A stretch of 10,675 nt of DNA. Origin: Planctomycetota bacterium (GTDB lineage Bacteria > Planctomycetota > GCA-002687715 > DRQF01). Under the pieces are notes generated by a model that was not told the origin of the DNA, did no database searches, and saw only the letters and a program-made list of their open reading frames with translations. Below are positions 238 through 10,675 of this stretch, piece by piece. The stretch spans positions 1 through 10,675 of the forward strand of contig JAZGFI010000120.1 of assembly GCA_036479435.1 (NCBI GenBank), read 5' to 3'. The position numbers were made by a program, and so were the translations under genes. Every line of letters begins with the position of its first letter. Position 1 is the stretch's first letter.

Positions 238-735
238 CTAAGCTACGTGATATTCGGTTCCACGCGCCTGTCCCTGGCGTTTCACCATCTTCTGGTCCAC
301 TAAGGATTGCAAGGCTCTGCGCACCTGCGGTGATTCGCCGCCGACTTCCGCTCGTATCGTTTCCGCGCCGAGTTGCCCGCCGTTCGCCGACAAAACCGCA
401 AAGACATCACGCACCAACTCTTCTCTTCCGGCAGCCGTGCGCGTGTTGCGGGCGCGACCCTTCATCGTCTTCGTAGCTGGCTTGTCCGCCTTCGCAGTTG
501 ACCCCTTGGGACGACCAGGTCCGCGCTTCTTCGGCACTGCGCCAACCGCCGCCATGAAGTCCTTCACGCTCAAGGAATTGAGCTCTGCCGCAAAGTCCGC
601 GGCTTTGAAACCATCAATGATCTCCCCCATCGTTGCCGACTGCGGGATCGCTGCCAGCGCCCTGTTGACGATCTCTGCGTTTACCTTCTCAATGGCGTCT
701 CCGATGACGCTCTCAATTCTTGTCTGCTTAGCCAT
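238..735 (-). CDS. Basic DNA-binding protein with an AT-hook-like motif and C-terminal winged helix (nucleoid-associated-protein-like), 165 aa
   Basis: KKRGPGRPKGS contains the GRP AT-hook core; K/A/T-rich linker; C-terminal GAETIRAEVG...VRRALQSLVDQKMVKRQGQARGTEY fits a wHTH plus wing. Start placed at ATG 735 because GGAGTGAT precedes it; the ORF track start is 756. Confidence 0.75.
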   Translation of the reverse strand: MAKQTRIESVIGDAIEKVNAEIVNRALAAIPQSATMGEIIDGFKAADFAAELNSLSVKDFMAAVGAVPKKRGPGRPKGSTAKADKPATKTMKGRARNTRTAAGREELVRDVFAVLSANGGQLGAETIRAEVGGESPQVRRALQSLVDQKMVKRQGQARGTEYHVA

Positions 736-791
736 AGCGGGATCACTCCGGTGCATACTTCATTCCCCACGCCGATGGAAACTTAGTACCG

Positions 792-820: not shown

Positions 821-879
821 TGGCATTCCTTCCGAGTCATCATTCCAAGTCGCCATAATCACCGACTGCGAGATTGGAC

Positions 880-2100
880 ATGACTGACACATTGATCACC
901 GAGACGGTCAAACTTGATCGCCTCTTCCCCAACCCTTCAAATCCCCGCTTCAACGACGAAGCCGTTCCGCACGTAGCAGCATCTCTACAGAGATTCGGAT
1001 GGCAGCAACCTGTCGTTGCGAAGTTGAGCGGCGAGATCATTGCCGGACACACTCGGTTCTTGGCGGCCCAGTCTCTCTCGATGCAGGAGATCCCCGTCGT
1101 GTGGTTCGAAGGCGATGATTTGGAAGCCGTGGCCTTTGGCATTGCCGACAATAGAACCGGCGAGTTCGCGTCATGGGACGACGAGGCATTAGCGAAACTC
1201 CTAAGCGAGCTTCGAGACGAAGACGCCCTCGATGGCGTTGGCTATGACGACAAGGAGATCGATGCCCTCCTCCACTCCGTCTTGGAGGAATCGGATCTCG
1301 AAGATCCTGGCGCTGAGGAGCCGCCGGAAAACCCTGTCACAAAAGAAGGGGATCTTTGGCTACTCGGCAAGCATCGCCTTTTGTGCGGCGATGCCACCAA
1401 CGAGCGCGACGTCGAGACTCTGTTTGCTGGCAAGCGCCCGGGCCTCATGGTCACCGACCCGCCCTACGGCGTGAGCTACCGACCCGAGTGGCGACAAGAG
1501 GCGGGCCTGGCTGACGGCGGCAAAACCGCCGAGGTCGCCAACGATGAGCGCGTGGACTGGACCGATGCCTGGCGTTTATTCCCAGGCGAGGTCGCCTACG
1601 TTTGGCACGCGGGCGTGCATTCACCATCGGTTGGCCAGCAGCTCCAAGACGTCGGCTTCGACATCCGTTCCCAGATTATCTGGGCCAAGAATCGCTTTGC
1701 CATTAGCCGTGGCCACTACCACTGGCAACACGAGCCCTGTTTCTACGTTGTTCGCTCGAGTGCCACGGCATCTTGGGGCGGAGACCACGCTCAATGCACG
1801 TTGTGGCCCATCGCGCAAGATAAAGCCGACCAGACGGAGCACTCAACCCAGAAGCCCCTGGAGTGCATGCTGCGACCCCTTCGCAACCACGACATCCATG
1901 ATGTCTATGACCCTTTCCTTGGCTCAGGCACGACGATGATCGCGGCCGAGAAGCTCAATCGGCGTTGTTTCGGCTTGGAGCTAACGCCGAGGTTTTGCGA
2001 TGTAATCATCTCCCGTTGGGAAAAGGCCACGGGACAAGAAGCGATACTCGAAGCGAGTAACGAGAGCTTCCTCATCACCGCGGAGCGCCGCGCCGACTGA
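880..2100 (+). CDS. ParB/Srx N-terminal domain fused to a beta-class N6-adenine/N4-cytosine DNA methyltransferase
   Basis: N-terminus NPSNPR...SLQRFGWQQPVV...IIAGHTRFLAA...IADNR is ParB-like. C-terminus has HRLLCGDA, catalytic TDPPY, HSTQKP and SAM-binding DPFLGSGTT in beta-class order. ATG at 880 (in-frame TTG at 874). Confidence 0.92.
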   Translation: MTDTLITETVKLDRLFPNPSNPRFNDEAVPHVAASLQRFGWQQPVVAKLSGEIIAGHTRFLAAQSLSMQEIPVVWFEGDDLEAVAFGIADNRTGEFASWDDEALAKLLSELRDEDALDGVGYDDKEIDALLHSVLEESDLEDPGAEEPPENPVTKEGDLWLLGKHRLLCGDATNERDVETLFAGKRPGLMVTDPPYGVSYRPEWRQEAGLADGGKTAEVANDERVDWTDAWRLFPGEVAYVWHAGVHSPSVGQQLQDVGFDIRSQIIWAKNRFAISRGHYHWQHEPCFYVVRSSATASWGGDHAQCTLWPIAQDKADQTEHSTQKPLECMLRPLRNHDIHDVYDPFLGSGTTMIAAEKLNRRCFGLELTPRFCDVIISRWEKATGQEAILEASNESFLITAERRAD

Positions 2101-2705
2101 TGAGTGCAAAGCTCCCAAGCGAAGCCGTCGACTATTACCTCTCGTTGGGGGCAGAGCGAAGCTACATCGCGGTGGCGAAGCATTTCGAAGTTTCGAAGCG
2201 CACTGTCTCCCGACGAGCGGCTGAGGAGGACTGGCAATCACGGATTGAGGAGCTGGAGAGGCCGGATCGGGAGCAAGCCTTCGGGCAAGCAAAGGTCCTT
2301 CAGGCCGTCGAGGTAACTCGGGTCAACGGTCTACAAGACGCCTTCCGGGAAGTCATCACGCCGCAGCGCATGAAGGCTCTAGTCGCGACTATGTTTAAGA
2401 ACGCGGTCCAAAAAGACGATGTGCGAGCCGCCAAGTTTCTAATCGAACGCTCGCTCGGGCGCGTGCGCAATGAGCCCTTGAGCCCCGTTAACTTGGATCT
2501 CCCGAACGGCCTGGAAACCACCACCGACATCCGCCGGGCCGCCAACTCGTTGCTGCAGAGCATCGCCGACGGAAGCCTCACTCCGGAAGACGCGCAGAAA
2601 TCCGCCATGGTTTTGGAGGCGGTTCGCACGTCGATTGAAACGGAAGACCTTGAGAATCGCCTGATCGAACTCGAAGAGCAATTGAAGCGGCAGGGGAAAC
2701 AATGA
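2100..2705 (+). CDS. HTH protein, terminase small subunit-like / DUF5681-type C-terminus (tentative)
   Basis: N-terminal HTH (RSYIAVAKHFEVSKRTVSRRAAEEDW) resembles phage TerS N-termini; DVRAAKFLIERSLG and a coiled-coil tail IETEDLENRLIELE. TGATG overlap with the MTase stop. Confidence 0.6.
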   Translation: MSAKLPSEAVDYYLSLGAERSYIAVAKHFEVSKRTVSRRAAEEDWQSRIEELERPDREQAFGQAKVLQAVEVTRVNGLQDAFREVITPQRMKALVATMFKNAVQKDDVRAAKFLIERSLGRVRNEPLSPVNLDLPNGLETTTDIRRAANSLLQSIADGSLTPEDAQKSAMVLEAVRTSIETEDLENRLIELEEQLKRQGKQ

Positions 2706-2926
2706 GGCTGGCGCGGCGAGTACAGCGTGTCTCTCGTCTCATCGAAGTCGAACCTCCTAAGGACCTGGGCTTTCTTCCGACCTGTCTCGCCGAGGACGTC
2801 GCCGGTTACGAAATAGGCACGATGTCGCTCCGCGCCCGGCTTAAGTCTCACACCCGCTACTGCGAAGCAGCGGCGCCGGTGATCGCTGGAATTGAAGCGG
2901 CAATGGCACAGGAGGCTACACCTTGA
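2702..2926 (+). CDS. Small hypothetical protein, 74 aa
   Basis: ATGA overlap with the upstream stop and TTGA overlap with the next gene indicate translational coupling. Confidence 0.65.
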   Translation: MRLARRVQRVSRLIEVEPPKDLGFLPTCLAEDVAGYEIGTMSLRARLKSHTRYCEAAAPVIAGIEAAMAQEATP

Positions 2927-3276
2927 GAATGGTAAACCGGGTGCGAAGAGTGGAATCCGGTCTTGGCCTCACCAACCATGGCCCCATGCCCATCGTCTGG
3001 AATGGGAAGATGGATGACGAATGGCAAAGGCGAGCGGAGATCGCCAAGAAGCGCGGCTGCGGGATCCACCTGATCACCTTTGCCCACACCACTTGCGCCG
3101 ATTCGAAGGAGGAAGCGGACGCGCTTATCGAAGAACGCATTGAGCAAGGCATGGGCTTTGCCGCCATTGTTGTCCGCCATCGCGATGACCCCGACAAAAC
3201 GCTGGCCGTACACGAGCCTGTACTGCCGGACTGGCTCAAGAACTTTGAAGACAGTGAAGAGGGCTCAACTAAATAG
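2923..3276 (+). CDS. Hypothetical protein, about 117 aa
   Basis: AGGAGG lies just upstream; TTG at 2923 overlaps the previous stop (alternative ATG at 2929). Its N-terminus resembles that of the preceding ORF. Confidence 0.65.
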   Translation: MRMVNRVRRVESGLGLTNHGPMPIVWNGKMDDEWQRRAEIAKKRGCGIHLITFAHTTCADSKEEADALIEERIEQGMGFAAIVVRHRDDPDKTLAVHEPVLPDWLKNFEDSEEGSTK

Positions 3277-3356
3277 CGGAATGTGACTTCATGTTTGGGG
3301 CGAAGGGAGCGTGTATGGCGTTCACGAAACCTGATCCTCAAACATGGAGAAACGCG

Positions 3357-3785
3357 ATGAACGCTAAGACGAACGAAACCGCTGCGAAGAAGGCCAGCCC
3401 GAAGCCCAAGAAGAAGAAAGAGCAAGCAAAGGTCCCAACGGCCATCACAACCTTGGCAGATTTGACGCTCGCTTACCCACCCCACCTAACAGCGATTGGA
3501 AAGAGCGAGAGCACGGCATCGAGTTACCGCGGCGACTTGAAGGTGGCGGCCAAGCACTTCGGTGAAACCACCAAGATTTCGGCGCTCACCGAGCGAAAAG
3601 TAAAGGCCTACTTCGAGAGCGACTTGGTCACGAAGACGCGCAAGGGTGAACCCAAAAACCCGATCACCACTGCGAAGCTCTGCCGAGTGTTTCGCCTGGG
3701 CCTCGTCTGGCTCGCTGAAGAGGGCCATCTCGCCGAAGCGCCGATTCCCGGCGACGACATCTCCCGACAGAAGAAGAGCGAATGA
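3357..3785 (+). CDS. Stand-alone phage-integrase N-terminal SAM-like/core-binding domain protein with a Lys-rich N-tail and no catalytic domain
   Basis: TLADLTLAYPPHLTAIGKSESTASSYRGDL...ISALTERKVKAYFES...KGEPKNPITTAKLCRVFR aligns by eye with the N-terminal ~100 aa of the downstream recombinase. GGAG precedes ATG 3357; alternative starts at 3315 and 3291. Confidence 0.7.
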   Translation: MNAKTNETAAKKASPKPKKKKEQAKVPTAITTLADLTLAYPPHLTAIGKSESTASSYRGDLKVAAKHFGETTKISALTERKVKAYFESDLVTKTRKGEPKNPITTAKLCRVFRLGLVWLAEEGHLAEAPIPGDDISRQKKSE

Positions 3786-3859
3786 CCAGCCGCTGAGGGC
3801 CTTCACCGCGCTGGCCCCTAAACCGGTCCGGCGTTTTTACAACTAAGTCCGAGAACCCC

Positions 3860-4732
3860 ATGACCTTCCAAGACACCTTCCAAGCCTACATGCTCCAGCT
3901 TGCTGCCGATGGGCGCTCGGGGCACACGATCAACCAATACCGTCGGCACCTTGCGCGCTTTGCAAACTGGCTTGACGAGACGAACCGCCCCACCGAGATT
4001 CACGACATTGACCATCAGGATCTCGCCGCATTTCTTGCCTCTGAAAGCGCCACGCACGATGCCGCGGGCAAAAAGAAGCGCCCCACCTCGATCAACACGA
4101 TCCGATCCTCGCTGAAGACCTTCTTTTGCTTCGTCCACGCCGCGGGCTACGCGCCCCGCAACGCCGGGCGTCTGATCCGGCGAGCGATCTGTGGCGATCC
4201 TCCGCCCCGGGCGATGAGCGAGTCTGAAGAACTACGATTCAAGAAAGCTCTCAAGGATCATCCCTGCAAACGAGATCGCGTGCTCTTTCGGCTCATGCTC
4301 CAGACAGGCATTCGGATCGGGTCGGCGCTGGGGCTCGACATCGAGGACTTGGACTTCGAGAATGGAAGGATCTGGCTCCGGACTATGAAGGGGGCGCGGG
4401 TCGATGCAAAAGGAATCCCCGAGCCCGTCAGCAACGAGGTTTCGGGTTACGTAGACGGCCAAGGTCGAGGGGCGGTGTTTCAGGGCCGGGACGGGCGAAG
4501 GCTCTCAGCCCGGCATGCTCAACGAGTTTTTTCGAGGATTGTCGAAAAGGCTGGCCTTGGTGATTGGATAACGCCTCATTGCCTGCGACACACTTACGCC
4601 ACAAGGCTCTACGAAGCTTCGAACGACCTAATACTGGTCAAGGAGGCGATGACCCACCGATCAATTTCCTCAACGGTGGTTTACCTCAGCTCGGTACAAA
4701 CTGTTCGCAGTTCGTGCATTCTTGTCGGATAA
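3860..4732 (+). CDS. Tyrosine recombinase/integrase, XerC/XerD-like, 290 aa
   Basis: Complete catalytic set: R (TGIRIG), K (MKG), HxxR (PHCLRHTYAT), H (MTHRS) and Y (TVVY), plus an N-terminal SAM-like domain. Confidence 0.93.
   Translation: MTFQDTFQAYMLQLAADGRSGHTINQYRRHLARFANWLDETNRPTEIHDIDHQDLAAFLASESATHDAAGKKKRPTSINTIRSSLKTFFCFVHAAGYAPRNAGRLIRRAICGDPPPRAMSESEELRFKKALKDHPCKRDRVLFRLMLQTGIRIGSALGLDIEDLDFENGRIWLRTMKGARVDAKGIPEPVSNEVSGYVDGQGRGAVFQGRDGRRLSARHAQRVFSRIVEKAGLGDWITPHCLRHTYATRLYEASNDLILVKEAMTHRSISSTVVYLSSVQTVRSSCILVG
4703..4718. repeat. Left arm of an imperfect inverted repeat (GTTCGCAGTTCGTGCA)
   Basis: Matches the reverse complement of 5763-5779 (GTTCGCAAGTTCGGGCA) at 15 of 17 positions, with one gap and one mismatch. 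Confidence 0.65.
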
Positions 4733-4777
4733 GGCGCTTATGGTCGTAAAACGCCAATTCTCTCCAAGGAGCCTAGA

Positions 4778-5671
4778 ATGCATGATTTGAAAGAACTATT
4801 TGCCAAGAGAAACTCGCAGAACAATGCAATCAAGCTTTCGAAGCAACGAGCCATCGCAGAAAGGCGACGCGAGTTAGTTCGGCTTGTTAACTTGGAGACG
4901 GTTTTTTGGGAGGCTTGCTGGTCGCTCAAATCGCTCGCTGGTCCACATGGTGACTTGGATCGAATAAAGAGCATTGCCATGCTTCGTGCTCCCGCTTGCT
5001 CAGGTTTCGACCGTCTTGCCATCGACTCCACGGAGCTTGCCCAACGAATCTCGAGGGCTGCGAAACTCATGAAGCGACTTGCGCCCGACGACCTCCAACG
5101 GCTCCAAGCTAACCAAGACGGTGACTACCCCATGATTGCATGCAAAATCATCAAGGCAGCTGCATTCGGCATGTCAGTTGAGGAAATCGAAAGCTGCCTT
5201 AACGATGCAATTTCTTGCCAAAGAGAGATCCCCACCGACTTTTTTGAAGAGCATCTCCAAGGCGACGGCGAAGACATGCGCGGATTCATGGGTGAGCTTC
5301 GAAGGATCGCAACCAGGTACACAGATCAGATCGAGTGCCTTTTTAGCCGCCCCATTCCGTTTCATGATGAATATCGGTGCGATGCGATCATTGACGCCCA
5401 AGATGCCGGAGATGAGTTGCGCCGTTCGGGTCGCGCTGAAAATCAAATCATGCGGATCCAAGAGATCATTTCGACCATCAGACGCGGTGGCGCTGCCAGA
5501 ATTGCACGAACCGAACTCGTCAAAATGGGCATGCCGAGCAGCACTGTGAACAAGATCTACAACGATCTCCACCTGAAAGGATCCCGAGGCGATGACGAGC
5601 GTCAGGAGTTCACCTCCGACGTAGCCATCCAGATCGCGATGAATTGGAAACCAAAGTCATCGAAGGCCTGA
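4778..5671 (+). CDS. Hypothetical protein, 297 aa, mostly helical with a possible C-terminal HTH
   Basis: Long ORF with AAGGAG before the ATG. C-terminal IARTELVKMGMPSSTVNKIY is HTH-like. No family recognised. Confidence 0.75.
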   Translation: MHDLKELFAKRNSQNNAIKLSKQRAIAERRRELVRLVNLETVFWEACWSLKSLAGPHGDLDRIKSIAMLRAPACSGFDRLAIDSTELAQRISRAAKLMKRLAPDDLQRLQANQDGDYPMIACKIIKAAAFGMSVEEIESCLNDAISCQREIPTDFFEEHLQGDGEDMRGFMGELRRIATRYTDQIECLFSRPIPFHDEYRCDAIIDAQDAGDELRRSGRAENQIMRIQEIISTIRRGGAARIARTELVKMGMPSSTVNKIYNDLHLKGSRGDDERQEFTSDVAIQIAMNWKPKSSKA

Positions 5672-5762
5672 CCAAGCAGCGTGAACGCCGACTCTTCGGT
5701 TCCCGAAAGTCATGAACTCGGAGTTTCGGATGGCCGATTCTTGTGATTTCGGCCTCGTTTCT

Positions 5763-5779
5763 TGCCCGAACTTGCGAAC
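5763..5779. repeat. Right arm of the imperfect inverted repeat (TGCCCGAACTTGCGAAC)
   Basis: Inverted counterpart of 4703-4718. Confidence 0.65.
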
Positions 5780-5823
5780 TGCCACCAGCAATCCTTCGGA
5801 TCTGTAAACACCATGAACTCCCT

Positions 5824-5853
5824 TTGAAACTCGGTACCAAACCGCGTCATTCT
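5824..5853 (+). promoter_or_regulatory. Possible sigma70 promoter for the replication operon
   Basis: TTGAAA (5824-5829), 18-nt spacer, CATTCT (5848-5853), followed by GGAGG at 5871-5875 and the GTG start at 5882. Confidence 0.35.
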
Positions 5854-5881
5854 CCGTTGAACAAGGCAACGGAGGCTCAAA

Positions 5882-8575
5882 GTGAGCATCATTCAAAGCA
5901 CCGACCAAGACAGCCTGGCGACCGGCAAGACGCCCACCGCAACCCGAATGGCCTACCTCGCGGACAACCACCGACAGCTGATTGACGAATCGGCGGTCTC
6001 TGAGGCAATTCTGGCGCAAAGAGGATATTGGACCGCCACGAAGAAATCCCAACTGAGTGAACTCGGATTCGGAAGGAGCCAACAGCGCACTCCGGCTCTT
6101 GTGATCCCGATTCACGGTGTCCACGGGAGCGTCGTCCTGCATCAAATCCGTCCGGATTCCCCGAGGGAAAAAGACGGCAAGAAGCTGAAATACGAGACTC
6201 CACACAACGCCCGCATGGCCGTTGACGTTCCGCCCGCAGCCCGTCCTGACATCGACGACCCCAAGATACCTCTCTTCATCACCGAGGGAGCGCGCAAAGC
6301 AGACGCAGCGGTCTCGAAGGGCCTTTGTTGCATCGGGCTACTGGGGGTCTGGAACTTCCGCGGAACGAATTCAAAGCAAGGAAAGACCGTTCTAGCCGAT
6401 TGGGAGAGCATCGCCCTCAACGATCGGAAGGTCTACATAGCCTACGACAGCGATGTGATGTCCAAGCAAGGCGTGTTTTTGGCTCTAAAGCGAATATCCG
6501 AATTCCTAAAGTCCCGCGGCGCAATAGTCACATTCATCTATCTGCCCGTGGCGAAAGATGGCGGCAAGGTCGGCTTGGATGATTTCTTCGCGTCGGGAAA
6601 AACGGTTGACGATCTTCTTTGTCACTCATCGGCCTCGCTGATCCAACCCACCACCATTCAGAAAGTGCAACCGTCTCCGTACGCCATGCACGACGACGGC
6701 TTCTACTGGTTTGGACCGGCGGGCTACCAGCAGGATCCAGTTCGGCTTTCAAACTTCACCGCGACAATCACCTGCGAAAGGGCATTGGACGATGACATCG
6801 AGTCCTTCCGTGAGTTTGAAATCACTTGCAAGGTCTCGGGCCGCGAGATTCTAATTCGAGTCCGAGCTGACGAGTTCGACGCGATGGCCTGGCCAACCAC
6901 GATGCTTGGATCTGGTGCAGTCGTCATGGCCGGTAGAGCGACCCGGGACCATCTCCGAGTGGCGATCCTCGATCATTCAGACAGCACCATCCGAAAGACG
7001 ATCTACACCCACCTCGGCTGGCGGAGAATCTCTGGCGAGTGGGTCTACCTCAGCGCAGCTGGGACAAATGGGACGGCTGGGACGCCAACTACGGCGGACA
7101 CTTCTCTACCTGCACCGCTCATGTCGGCAACACTTCCGGCCACGCCGAATCAACAAGAACTGGCTGCCGCGATTCGAGCCACCCTCCGCCTCACAGAGGG
7201 CCTGACTTCGGACGAGATCGCCTTCACTCTGATCTCATTGGTTTTTAGGGCAGCGATTAATCGATCCGACTTCACCGTCTGTCTCGTGGGAGAAAGCGGC
7301 ACCTTCAAGACCGAGTTGGCCACCTTGTGCCAACAGTTTTTCGGCGAAGGTTACAACTCCCGAAACCTCCCGGCCAACTGGTCCAACACAGCGAACTTCA
7401 ATCGATCCCTGGCGTTCTCGGCCAAGGACAGCCTCTTGGTCGTGGATGACTTCGTACCGGGAGGAACCTCCCAAGATCGAGCCAAGCTCCAACGGAATGC
7501 CGAAGAGCTACTACGTGGTCAAGGCAACGCCGCTGGCCGGGGTCGTATGAACGCCAACGCCACGCTCCAAACTCAAAGTCCTCCTCGCACGACAATCCTG
7601 ATGACCGCAGAAGAGCTTCCCCAAGGACAATCATTGCGTTCGAGAATGCTAGTGCTGGAGATCTCACGAAGATCGGTTGATGTCGAAGCCTTAACCGAAA
7701 TGCAAGAGCTCGCGCGACAGGGCCGGTTCTCAGCTTGCATGGCGGGATATGTCGCTTTCCTTGCGCCAAACATCCGCTCGATCAGAACTGGTCTTTCGAA
7801 GAGATCCGAAGACCTCCGGGCGACAATCGACATCTCTATCGGTCACGCTCGAATCCCGGAGACTCTCGCGCAACTCTTGATTGGCATAGATCACTTTCTC
7901 AAATTTGCGGAAGAATCCGAAGCGATCAGCTCCGAGGAACGCCACGCGCTACTCCAGCGAGGACGCCGAGCCTTGACTATGACTGGGGCTGGCCAGAACG
8001 AAGATCAGCGCCGCCTGGATCCTTGCCAACAATTTCTGGAGTTCTTGCGTTCCGCGATACTTAGCGGTGTGGCGCACATCGCATCTCTACGCGCCCCCAC
8101 AACGGCTCAATCTGCTTCATCAAATTTTCGCAGCGGCTACCCCGAGCATGCGAACGGCGCGGGAAGTCGAGTCGGTTGGGCCAAAGGCGACGAGGTCTAC
8201 TTGGATCCAAGATCCGCGTTTCGGGTCGCAAGCCGTTTCGCATCAGACTGTGGCGAGAGTTTCACCCTGGGGTTCTCAACTCTTGGAAAGCGACTTCAAG
8301 ACAACGGGATTCTCCTCGCTTCAGAAAAACAACGAGGTCGTGCGACAACTCGAAAGAGCATCGGAGGCAAACGTGTTGGTGTCTGGGTAGTTGACCGATC
8401 CTCTTTATTCCCTAAGGAAGACGTCCCAGCTGTCCCAACTGGCCCAGATCGCTCAACAAGTGACGCGAAGACTCCACTCCGCGACTACATGATTCCGTCG
8501 GCTGTTAGTGCCGAGGACTCCAAGGCCCCCGCAGAATTTGATCGAACTACCCACGACAAGGAGAGCACTGAATGA
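5882..8575 (+). CDS. Primase-helicase replication protein: DUF3854-type TOPRIM primase, DUF927-like region, P-loop ATPase/helicase and C-terminal HTH, 897 aa
   Basis: QIRPDSP..KY, TOPRIM motifs LFITEGARKA and IAYDSD, KVGLDDF; YTHLGWR; Walker A GESGTFKT; Walker B LLVVDDF; LRSR arginine-finger-like motif. GGAGG precedes the GTG. Confidence 0.88.
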   Translation: MSIIQSTDQDSLATGKTPTATRMAYLADNHRQLIDESAVSEAILAQRGYWTATKKSQLSELGFGRSQQRTPALVIPIHGVHGSVVLHQIRPDSPREKDGKKLKYETPHNARMAVDVPPAARPDIDDPKIPLFITEGARKADAAVSKGLCCIGLLGVWNFRGTNSKQGKTVLADWESIALNDRKVYIAYDSDVMSKQGVFLALKRISEFLKSRGAIVTFIYLPVAKDGGKVGLDDFFASGKTVDDLLCHSSASLIQPTTIQKVQPSPYAMHDDGFYWFGPAGYQQDPVRLSNFTATITCERALDDDIESFREFEITCKVSGREILIRVRADEFDAMAWPTTMLGSGAVVMAGRATRDHLRVAILDHSDSTIRKTIYTHLGWRRISGEWVYLSAAGTNGTAGTPTTADTSLPAPLMSATLPATPNQQELAAAIRATLRLTEGLTSDEIAFTLISLVFRAAINRSDFTVCLVGESGTFKTELATLCQQFFGEGYNSRNLPANWSNTANFNRSLAFSAKDSLLVVDDFVPGGTSQDRAKLQRNAEELLRGQGNAAGRGRMNANATLQTQSPPRTTILMTAEELPQGQSLRSRMLVLEISRRSVDVEALTEMQELARQGRFSACMAGYVAFLAPNIRSIRTGLSKRSEDLRATIDISIGHARIPETLAQLLIGIDHFLKFAEESEAISSEERHALLQRGRRALTMTGAGQNEDQRRLDPCQQFLEFLRSAILSGVAHIASLRAPTTAQSASSNFRSGYPEHANGAGSRVGWAKGDEVYLDPRSAFRVASRFASDCGESFTLGFSTLGKRLQDNGILLASEKQRGRATTRKSIGGKRVGVWVVDRSSLFPKEDVPAVPTGPDRSTSDAKTPLRDYMIPSAVSAEDSKAPAEFDRTTHDKESTE
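7059..7084 (+). repeat. Three TGGGAC units at 9-bp period (iteron-like)
   Basis: CTGGGACAAATGGGACGGCTGGGACG; 22/26 identical to the reverse complement of 8422-8447. Confidence 0.75.
8422..8447 (-). repeat. Inverted copy of the 9-bp-period GGGAC array
   Basis: CGTCCCAGCTGTCCCAACTGGCCCAG, whose reverse complement is CTGGGCCAGTTGGGACAGCTGGGACG. Confidence 0.75.
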
Positions 8576-8742
8576 GCCGCCACCCCTCCACCGAACTCGT
8601 CTGCCCCGATTGCTTAGGTCGTTGCCGCCAAAAAGCACCCTTTTGGGCCGCCTGCACTTGGTGCAGTTGGCAGGGCCACCCCGTGGAAGCCGCGGACCTC
8701 GGCCCACCGACCTCTTACACAGAAACGAATCGCCCTTCCTAA
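8572..8742 (+). CDS. Zinc-ribbon microprotein, 56 aa (absent from the ORF track)
   Basis: Hand translation: MSRHPSTELVCPDCLGRCRQKAPFWAACTWCSWQGHPVEAADLGPPTSYTETNRPS*. CxxC-x13-CxxC pattern; ATGA overlap with the primase stop. Confidence 0.7.
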   Translation: MSRHPSTELVCPDCLGRCRQKAPFWAACTWCSWQGHPVEAADLGPPTSYTETNRPS

Positions 8743-8765
8743 TCACCACTTTGGAGAACACCACG

Positions 8766-9032
8766 ATGACCACATCACCAACAAACTATGACCTCAGTCA
8801 GGTCCTGGAGCTCGGCTCACTCAAGACCACCGACGGCCTCAGAACTCTTCACGCTCTTCGGAAAAACATCCAAGACCTCGCCGCAGTCATGGACCACGAA
8901 CTTATTGAGTGCGGCGACCGCAACGACGACATGCGGACCATCGAGATCTTTGCCACAGAGTTCAAGATGTCGATCGACCTCGCAATTGCAGCTCACGCCG
9001 ATAAGGAGACCACCGTATGCGGGCAGCCGTAA
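8766..9032 (+). CDS. Hypothetical helical protein, 88 aa
   Basis: GGAG precedes ATG 8766 (MTTSPTNYDL...). The upstream extension to 8508 overlaps two better-supported genes. Confidence 0.65.
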   Translation: MTTSPTNYDLSQVLELGSLKTTDGLRTLHALRKNIQDLAAVMDHELIECGDRNDDMRTIEIFATEFKMSIDLAIAAHADKETTVCGQP

Positions 9033-9316
9033 GCGCACTCACCGTCAGCAACATCACCTTCATTGCGGGCAGCGACGCAGACATCGATTCCGGTCTTCTT
9101 TGCTTCGTCAAGTTCACGCTCAATGACCAGATCGCTATCGACGGCGTGACTTTGCGGCTGACGAGTTCAGGAAAGTTGACCCTCAGTTTTCCGAAACGGA
9201 AAGACCGAACGGGAAACGAACACCCTTTCCTTTACCCCATCAATGCCACGGCTCGGGCCAACATCGAAGAGCAAGTATTCGCTCGCTTGCCAAGGCGCGC
9301 GGCCCAACGACGATGA
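9017..9316 (+). CDS. SpoVG-family nucleic-acid-binding protein
   Basis: LLCFVKFTLNDQIAIDGVTLR...LTLSFPKRKDRTGNEHPFLYPINATARANIEEQV matches the SpoVG pattern. TAAGGAG precedes the start. Confidence 0.8.
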   Translation: MRAAVSALTVSNITFIAGSDADIDSGLLCFVKFTLNDQIAIDGVTLRLTSSGKLTLSFPKRKDRTGNEHPFLYPINATARANIEEQVFARLPRRAAQRR

Positions 9317-9444
9317 ACCGCCTCGACTCAGATCAAATGAGCAAAGAAGAGCGCCTCAAAGAGCTATCCGAGATCCTCGCACTGGGAATCTTGCGCCGTC
9401 ACCAGATTCAACTGGATACCGACCCCCAAGTTGAGGCTCTATGA
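9313..9444 (+). CDS. 43-aa microprotein of the kind found upstream of DUF2924 genes (absent from the ORF track)
   Basis: Hand translation: MNRLDSDQMSKEERLKELSEILALGILRRHQIQLDTDPQVEAL*. ATGA overlap with the SpoVG-like stop; amphipathic M..EERL.EL..ILA.GILR helix. Confidence 0.7.
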   Translation: MNRLDSDQMSKEERLKELSEILALGILRRHQIQLDTDPQVEAL

Positions 9445-9475
9445 GCACCACCTGTTTAACAGCGAGAAGACCAAA

Positions 9476-9991
9476 ATGTCCAAGCCCCTTCCAAGCGGTC
9501 GGCTCAAACCCCTGGAGTTGATGCGAGCCGATCCCTTCATGGCCGAGCAACTCGAACGGCTTCAAGCGATGTCGATGCCCGAACTACTCGACGAACACAT
9601 TCGCCTGTGGGGCAAGCCATCACGGGTGAAGCACCGTGCCTACATTTGGAAACGATGCGCTCGAAAAATCCAAGAACTGAGATATGGCGGCCTCAGTCGA
9701 AAGGCCCAAGAGCGGCTTGAGGAGCTGATCGGCATGCTTGGCATCGACTTCTCGAGGCCCATCAACGAAGCAGCGCAGGCCGTCCTGAAGCACGACGGCG
9801 GCCTCATCTCTGGCACGACCTTGGTCCGCGAGTGGAAAGGGACTCAGATCATCGTTCACATCCTCGCCAAGGGCTTTGAATACGACGGTGACCACTACCG
9901 AAGCCTCTCCGCGATCGCCAAGGAGATCACGGGATCCCACTGCAATGGCAGAGCTTGGTTCAAACTCACGGAGCGGAAGAAAAGAGCATGA
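9476..9991 (+). CDS. DUF2924 domain-containing protein
   Basis: IQELRYGGLS and GTTLVREWKG...GFEYDGDHYRSLSAIAKEITGSHCNGRAWF signatures; directly upstream of a serine recombinase. Start uncertain (9476 or a later ATG). Confidence 0.88.
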   Translation: MSKPLPSGRLKPLELMRADPFMAEQLERLQAMSMPELLDEHIRLWGKPSRVKHRAYIWKRCARKIQELRYGGLSRKAQERLEELIGMLGIDFSRPINEAAQAVLKHDGGLISGTTLVREWKGTQIIVHILAKGFEYDGDHYRSLSAIAKEITGSHCNGRAWFKLTERKKRA

Positions 9992-10675
9992 CGGCGGCAA
10001 GGAAACGCTCGCACCTCCGCGCCATTCCCCAGGACCAGCCGAAACGGGTCGCCGTTTACACGAGAAAATCGACGACGAAGGGACTGGACGCGGCCTTCAC
10101 GAGCCTCGATAGCCAACGGGAATCCATCCTCGCCTACATCACATCGCAAACGCACCAGGGCTGGGCAGCCATCGAAGAGACCTACGACGACGGCGGTTTC
10201 TCCGGCGGCACGACCGATCGGCCCGCGTTTCAACGCTTGCTCAAAGACGTTCGGGACGGGCGAATCGACGTGATCGCCTGCTACAAAATCGACCGCGTCA
10301 GTCGGTCGCTCCCTGACTTCACCAACATCATGGCGGAGTTCGAAAAACACGGAGTCGCGCTGGTCTCGATCACCGAGAGTTTCGACACCTCTTCTCCGAT
10401 GGGCCGGATGACGCTCAACTTGCTAGCGACTTTCGCGCAGTTCGAACGCGAGATGATTTCCGAACGCACGCGCGACAAAATGGCAGCGACCCGAAGAAAA
10501 GGAATGTGGGCGGGCGGAACGCCGCCACACGGGTTCCGCGCCGTCGATCAAAAGTTGGTGCCGGATTCAGAATATGCCGAGCAGGTTCCAGAGATGTTTC
10601 GCGAGTATCTTCGAATCGGAACGCTCAAGGGATTAGCCCAGGAGTTTCACCGCCGCGGCTGGCGCACTCGAAGAG
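9988..10675 (+). CDS. Large serine recombinase (resolvase domain plus start of recombinase domain), truncated by the window edge
   Basis: Hand translation from ATG 9988 (ATGA overlap): VAVYTRKST (catalytic Ser), SLDSQRE, YDDGGFSGGTTDRPAFQRLL, YKIDRVSRS, FAQFEREMISERTRDK, GMWAGGTPPHGF. Open to the window end, so missing from the ORF track. Confidence 0.95.
   Translation, partial: MTAARKRSHLRAIPQDQPKRVAVYTRKSTTKGLDAAFTSLDSQRESILAYITSQTHQGWAAIEETYDDGGFSGGTTDRPAFQRLLKDVRDGRIDVIACYKIDRVSRSLPDFTNIMAEFEKHGVALVSITESFDTSSPMGRMTLNLLATFAQFEREMISERTRDKMAATRRKGMWAGGTPPHGFRAVDQKLVPDSEYAEQVPEMFREYLRIGTLKGLAQEFHRRGWRTRR

Follow-up and report, generated by a model that had tools for sequence, protein, structure and literature searches.

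What does the tyrosine recombinase encoded on a short planctomycete contig act upon? The window analysed here is the whole of that contig (JAZGFI010000120.1, our C120; 10,675 nt), whose right end cuts an integrase gene, leaving the right flank beyond the contig. A simple Xer-like tyrosine recombinase without an arm-binding domain (3860..4732; this and all other genes are on the plus strand unless stated) follows a 142-aa, core-binding-only partner (3357..3785) and precedes a 297-aa orphan (4778..5671). An earlier note had proposed that the enzyme flips or exchanges this 4.7–5.8 kb segment between inverted GTTCG arms. We find that the arms are very probably not sites of this recombinase, that the conserved cis-signal of the module lies at the 5′ end of the recombinase gene and not at its 3′ end, and that, judged by its genes, the window covers the greater part of a satellite-like island that is of terminase type and capsid-less.

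The arms, two adjoining dyads and three open reading frames (ORFs) all lie where the earlier note placed them; what did not hold is that arms and dyads rise above chance. The left arm (4703–4718, plus strand), in the non-conserved tail of the enzyme past its catalytic Tyr, matches the reverse complement of 5763–5779 at 15 of 17 positions, with one gap and one mismatch. One 5-bp dyad (4729–4741, spacer 3) overlaps the recombinase stop codon, and the other (5715–5725, spacer 1) lies with the right arm in a cluster of TTCGG/CCGAA units 5′ of the primase gene (5694–5799). No inverted match between the sequences flanking the 297-aa gene scores better than this pair, whose score is reached in 25 of 1,000 flank shuffles (p ~0.025–0.04 before any correction); these flanks, however, were hand-picked post hoc, with 11 genes and two orientations to choose from. 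When one half of 3357–5881 was compared with the other, 56 of 60 shuffles reached the same score; the pair is missing from the 25 longest inverted repeats that an ungapped repeat finder lists for the region, and the unrelated gene at 8766–9032 is flanked by a direct match that scores similarly (21). The 12–13 nt arm core recurs at four further places in the genome, on four other contigs. Perfect 5-bp dyads number 106 in the window, about one per 100 nt, and the two in question differ in sequence, spacer and distance from their arms (10 bp vs 37 bp). The crossover site of a tyrosine recombinase is an inverted pair around a 6–8 bp spacer; because each arm is internally a direct pair, not an inverted one, and the dyads are unlike, the arms lack crossover-site geometry. 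For TTCGG/CCGAA units in the 120 nt past the 297-aa gene, p was 0.03, and the promoter scan gave no sigma-70 consensus match at either arm. The ATAAG dyad (4729–4741) falls, on inspection by eye, within the 19-bp spacer of a possible −35/−10 pair ahead of the 297-aa gene (4722–4752), unreported by the promoter scan, which covered spacers of 16–18 nt. A dif-like reading of this dyad was dropped on account of its 5-bp centre and lack of conservation. Elsewhere in the genome, a dif-like inverted pair with a 6-bp centre (G000:C23:25034-25047) stands ~150 nt 5′ of a different tyrosine recombinase gene, and a similar site occurs on contig C188.

Homologous loci were gathered from related genomes, metagenomes (best 80 of 156) and viral contigs; 90 of them, including a few duplicates or near-duplicates, hold a complete recombinase end and 150 nt beyond it. 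None of the 90 carries the arms at up to one mismatch, one does at two (mid-gene control, 1) and 21 do at three (control, 20); the ATAAG dyad is absent from all 90 recombinase ends, and similarity among homologs stops at the recombinase stop codon. To allow for element-specific arms, upstream and downstream flanks were aligned for 24 co-oriented genes of ~240–630 aa, chosen from 51 first downstream ORFs; three reached p<0.05, one being the window itself and two long gappy matches. The closest homolog, P0012, is 84% identical; at close range, arm conservation could be judged solely from a sister island in the same genome (on contigs C245 and C250), which has no arm pair despite a nearly identical core-binding domain. 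In three runs a single contig spans both arms (4093–9497 in X1 and X5, 4555–9497 in X2; depth 19, 30 and 73), and in run X7 the region is covered in pieces only. The contigs of these four runs, of which X1 and X2 may be the source of the window, contain no inverted or excision joint, and the sole listed joint, 2710 to 3306, belongs to the sister island; assembly drops rare variants, and therefore the contigs speak against a common inversion without demonstrating that inversion is absent. With arms at chance level, none in 90 homologs and no joints, the inversion-arm reading is largely refuted. The 4.7–5.8 kb segment is not the variable unit either, the variable stretch being ~4.2–9.0 kb in the sister island, and the idea that flipping would rewrite the recombinase C-terminus has no evident meaning, because the left arm lies in a dispensable tail: past Tyr275 the window's protein no longer follows the family consensus, and several homologs stop no more than three residues from that Tyr. 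That the GTTCG arms are element-specific operators of the downstream protein is plausible, and a chance match is equally so.

The enzyme's catalytic residues (R152-K177-H240-R243-H266-Y275) are intact. R152, H240, R243 and H266 are present in 97/97 homologs and K177 and Y275 in 96/97, at a mean identity of ~50%, which rules out a split pseudogene as well as a dead regulator. Residues 9–93 match PF02899 (E 5.5e-12) ahead of a catalytic half with the atypical C-terminal tail, NCBIfam matches are weak and far below cut-off (59.5 of 222 bits; 64.2 of 265 bits for TIGR02249), and a scan of genome contigs with the recombinase yielded only four distant loci. FimB/FimE, the Rci shufflon enzyme and IntI share the tyrosine recombinase fold but differ from this system, in which no conserved paired sites, attC-like sites or cassette array, or second orientation was seen. 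An integron IntI was rejected on its TIGR02249 score, on the single variable gene without repeated sites and on the lack of an Rfam match, and an invertase or shufflon on the absence of conserved inverted sites beside homologs (0/90; 3/24 flank pairs at p<0.05).

Conservation is found instead at the 5′ end. Three TCC(A/G)AG direct repeats (at 3848, 3867 and 3879; 3848..3884, plus strand) run across the recombinase start codon, and two more lie in the leader of the methyltransferase gene that opens the packaging block (831..849, plus strand), immediately 3′ of a −10-like box. Across the loci, TCC(A/G)(A/G)G occurs at 55/97 recombinase starts, with at least two copies, mostly 12–13 bp apart, at 39/97, vs 0/96 mid-gene and 6/81 downstream, counts in which related loci are not independent. 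Of 37 strict motif pairs in 673 kb of loci, 29 fall within 200 nt of a recombinase start. The strict motif is near the start of the recombinase in 47/83 cases, the methyltransferase in 18/19 and the partner in 13/43, and near that of TerL, TerS and the integrase in 2/21, 2/22 and 0/15. When starts were aligned, 24/25 methyltransferase leaders in recombinase-linked loci carried the motif, 19 of them in at least two copies. Twenty methyltransferase loci were also fetched without the recombinase as query, and 18 could be aligned: the three that carry the recombinase family all have the motif (two with at least two copies), and among the 15 recombinase-free loci none has two copies and four have one within 130 nt. 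A further promoter-like motif, GAGC(G/C)nn(n)ATG, presumed functional and found in the window at 3307..3317 (plus strand) ahead of the partner/recombinase pair, is present in 23/76 upstream regions vs 7/112 mid-gene controls.

The 142-aa protein, with a Lys-rich N-terminal tail, is core-binding-only and travels with the recombinase, as the earlier note had supposed. hhalign pairs it with the 102 N-terminal columns of the recombinase family itself (97.8%, E 1e-12), and its model is confident (predicted local distance difference test, pLDDT, 91.7; 51 alignment rows), matching 3nrw (Z 13.6, root-mean-square deviation 1.9 over 96 residues) and the lambda Int core-binding domain, 2oxo (Z 12.4, 2.1 over 93 residues); Foldseek agrees with a core-binding fold at weak E-values. 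Profile alignment and model thus identify a genuine core-binding-only paralog of the recombinase N-terminal domain, lacking a catalytic domain. It lies upstream in 28 of the 52 recombinase-found loci with at least 600 nt upstream, in 18 of these 28 within 200 nt, and in 49/75 loci when partner-found loci are counted too; in homologs it is a separate ORF with its own stop. A sense-strand hairpin follows the partner gene in 22/38 loci at z below −2, the window's own not being significant. Similarity of partner and recombinase correlates at Spearman 0.36 and 0.30, vs 0.53 within the enzyme, and prediction of the complex scored 0.00, neither supporting nor opposing the pairing. Partner profile matches occur in 7/23 genomes of the order and 18/401 sampled in the phylum, and tblastn with the partner found no match among plasmids or annotated phages.

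The gene neighbourhood indicates what carries this pair. Relatives share an order of methyltransferase, TerS, TerL, partner, recombinase, a variable gene of 250–490 aa, a xis-like helix-turn-helix (HTH) gene, primase-helicase, SpoVG and integrase; of 30 loci with at least 3 kb upstream, 21 have packaging genes there. Among the 24 loci with at least 5 kb downstream, 18 have SpoVG, 14 a primase and 14 an integrase, which is either of tyrosine type or a DUF2924 protein plus a serine type. The window follows this order, with a ParB-N/N6-N4 DNA methyltransferase (889..2100; PF02195, PF01555), a TerS-like HTH protein (2100..2705; phrog_6299, E 6e-8), a DUF3854 primase-helicase as its replication module (5882..8575; Pfam and relatives' gene order), SpoVG (9017..9316; Pfam), a DUF2924 protein (9476..9991; Pfam) and, by profile matches, a large serine recombinase truncated by the contig end (9988..10675), the probable integrase. 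The earlier assumption of a separate integrating enzyme therefore stands. TerL, common after TerS in many relatives, is absent from the window copy, and the type of primase-helicase differs among relatives. No capsid, portal or conjugation families were found by Pfam among 71 proteins from nine loci, and no virion structural or lysis genes there or among the window proteins compared with PHROGs, the window's right flank lying beyond the contig. Integrase, primase-replicase and small terminase, as in phage-inducible chromosomal islands (PICIs), are present in the window; relatives have the xis-like HTH regulator, and no AlpA, MerR or Stl regulator was recognised in the window copy. Four relatives are on viral-collection contigs, a hint and no more that a helper phage may induce and package such islands. 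The islands are probably a family of Planctomycetota, to which the names of two homologs point.

The sister island carries a different gene after the recombinase and an unrelated primase. It is 90–100% identical to the window over 3651–4190, ~50% over the catalytic half of the recombinase and 89% over 9039–10675. The ends of the differing block, ~4.2–9.0 kb, thus lie inside conserved genes, as would be expected if the block was exchanged homologously and not as a cassette between arms. The two co-resident recombinases are themselves chimeric (window 3860–4210 vs L005:519-868), with near-identical core-binding halves and ~50% identical catalytic halves.

That the gene downstream of the recombinase varies was correctly anticipated: across relatives this position is a hypervariable slot, and nearly all its occupants are orphans (2/26 scanned pass a Pfam cut-off). 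The window's 297-aa protein, placed here by slot position and database searches, has no true relative among 1.84 billion representatives; two phmmer matches were discarded as repeat artefacts, Atlas leads reach at most 0.80, and its single-sequence model is of low confidence (pLDDT 48) with an uninformative fold search (best Z 6.7). Inspection by eye shows short, element-specific repeats downstream of the slot gene in several loci. A weak test placed 4/24 at p<0.05 vs 1/24 in each coding control, and a post hoc test over 22 loci, omitting L082 and L102 as doubtful slot genes, gave a pooled p of 0.003, a value that the coding control inside the recombinase reached as well.

The reading we favour, tentatively and at somewhat less than even confidence, is that the recombinase is a resolvase that works on circles of the island itself, aided optionally by a DNA-binding helper. 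It would act on excised, replicated island DNA, not on the 4.7–5.8 kb gene, either resolving dimers or re-circularising the island after transfer in a helper phage capsid. Cre performs such a role for P1. Core-binding domains would bind the TCC(A/G)AG repeats at the recombinase start and in the methyltransferase leader, leading to autoregulation, to accessory sites resembling the direct repeats of TnpI, or to both, and the partner, without a catalytic half, would modulate this binding. Variation of the slot gene and primase would arise when islands sharing a genome swap the middle block through homologous recombination in the conserved sequences on either side. More speculative, and rather unlikely as a whole, is a fuller proposal in which the partner, a duplicate core-binding domain without catalytic function, assembles together with the enzyme it derives from on TCC(A/G)AG arrays and sets the directionality or timing of satellite circularisation and resolution, in an undescribed planctomycete family of terminase-bearing satellites.

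Several observations weigh against a helper-assisted resolvase. The partner is missing from 24/52 loci and its gene is interrupted by an insertion sequence (IS) in the sister island, the window copy has no TerL, and no inverted core crossover site was found near the recombinase gene. The motif occurs irrespective of the partner (a non-coding copy in 19/47 loci with it and 13/26 without), and one recombinase-free methyltransferase locus, L210, also has a copy. At the recombinase, the copy at +7 lies in coding sequence and that at −16 overlaps the ribosome-binding site (RBS), and in 11/25 loci an inverted copy overlaps the methyltransferase RBS and permits an RNA hairpin; the repeats may therefore be signals at the RNA level. 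The case for an HTH in slot proteins is thin as well, with sub-cut-off HTH-type matches in 3/22 slot C-termini and none in the window's; from these matches, gene position and Atlas leads of at most 0.80, the 297-aa protein is, as a weak lead, possibly a regulator with a C-terminal HTH.

The alternative that survives best, doubtful as we consider it, takes the partner as a stand-alone repressor or excision cofactor that arose by duplication and is co-transcribed with the recombinase without acting on it, the repeats being RNA or operator signals for another factor such as SpoVG. Its optional presence (28/52), repeats that are independent of it, the hairpin between the two genes in 22/38 loci and the modest similarity correlation would all fit. 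Searches of 11 loci and the window against Rfam, at a cut-off as lenient as E 1, returned nothing, which means that no catalogued RNA accounts for the repeats. The partner is, however, a paralog of this very enzyme's domain and sits directly upstream of it where present. Distinctly less likely is mobilisation of the MpsA/MpsB kind, with the enzyme as relaxase, the partner as an MpsB-like helper and the upstream repeats as an origin of transfer (oriT), the island hitch-hiking on a conjugative element. SGI1 pairs a tyrosine-recombinase-like relaxase with a core-binding-like accessory and has its oriT upstream (PMC9299015), an integrase is found near 96% of MOB_M relaxases (10.64898/2026.01.13.699239), and the window likewise has a separate integrase and a conserved upstream signal. 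Yet MpsA, TcpM and MobK lack a core-binding domain in that account (PMC9299015), whereas the window enzyme has PF02899 and sits in a terminase block, in a family without conjugation genes among the 71 proteins of nine loci; as enzymes of the MOB_M class are by definition free of a core-binding domain (PMC9299015), assignment to this class was rejected. A decaying prophage remnant, its recombinase pair without a current role, would agree with the missing TerL and with relatives that are frameshifted or IS-interrupted, but compact fixed gene order, nine loci free of structural genes and near-invariant catalytic residues make it improbable. Inversion or exchange of the 4.7–5.8 kb gene between the GTTCG arms, for which a top flank match of uncorrected significance, a hypervariable neighbour and an intact enzyme may be cited, is scarcely credible against chance-level direct-pair arms that are missing from 90 homologs and the sister island and spanned without a joint in three runs.

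Other features of the locus were noted in passing. GGGAC-type inverted repeat clusters within the primase gene, at 7056–7084 and 8419–8447 (26 nt, 85% complementary), are possible replication-origin iterons. A basic histone-like protein (238–756, minus strand) is divergent from the methyltransferase, gives a weak C-terminal winged-HTH signal and has four genome copies, and positions 1–125 are the end of another multi-copy element, matching at least seven other contigs. Defence-type genes, namely Thoeris/TIR, Mrr and TerB, flank related islands (L161:12128-15456, L141:12798-14039, L162:4754-7606). The element interrupting the sister island's partner gene (end of C245, L006:10828-10957; start of C250, L005:1-130) is multi-copy, with TGT...ACA ends and a 6-bp target duplication, and its ends match dozens of contig ends in the same genome.

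A new inversion or cassette system is thus not supported, and the module is best set beside helper-assisted recombinases and satellites. The literature searched, without most subscription papers, described neither the island family nor a complete recombinase accompanied by a core-binding-only paralog. The nearest likeness is MpsA/MpsB of SGI1, where a tyrosine-recombinase-family enzyme and a separate core-binding protein share an island with its own integrase (PMC9299015). There, MpsA is without a core-binding domain and MpsB supplies one; here, in contrast, the enzyme has retained its domain, and the partner comes on top of it as a further paralog that is optional, encoded upstream and located within a terminase block. 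TnpI/irs of Tn4430 and Tn5401 and TnpS+TnpT/rst of Tn4651 are likewise simple tyrosine recombinases distinct from the integrating enzyme, the TnpI site lying upstream of its gene with direct repeats and TnpS using the helper TnpT (PMC7157771). Direct repeats are present here too, but neither a Tn3 transposase nor an inverted core site (IR1-IR2) was found, and while TnpT is described as divergently transcribed and without homology to other proteins (PMC7157771), the window's partner is a co-oriented core-binding paralog. PICI satellites combine an integrase, a xis/AlpA/MerR-like regulator, a primase-replicase and a small terminase with no virion genes (PMC10085698); to this set the window's relatives add TerL, the ParB-methyltransferase, SpoVG and a second recombinase with its partner. 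The surviving module would accordingly be a variant of helper-assisted tyrosine recombinases housed in a PICI-like island, from a phylum with poorly described mobile elements. If the partner controls a recombinase that is already complete, its mode of action would differ from that of MpsB, which complements a domain-lacking enzyme, and the 5′ repeats supply candidate binding sites.

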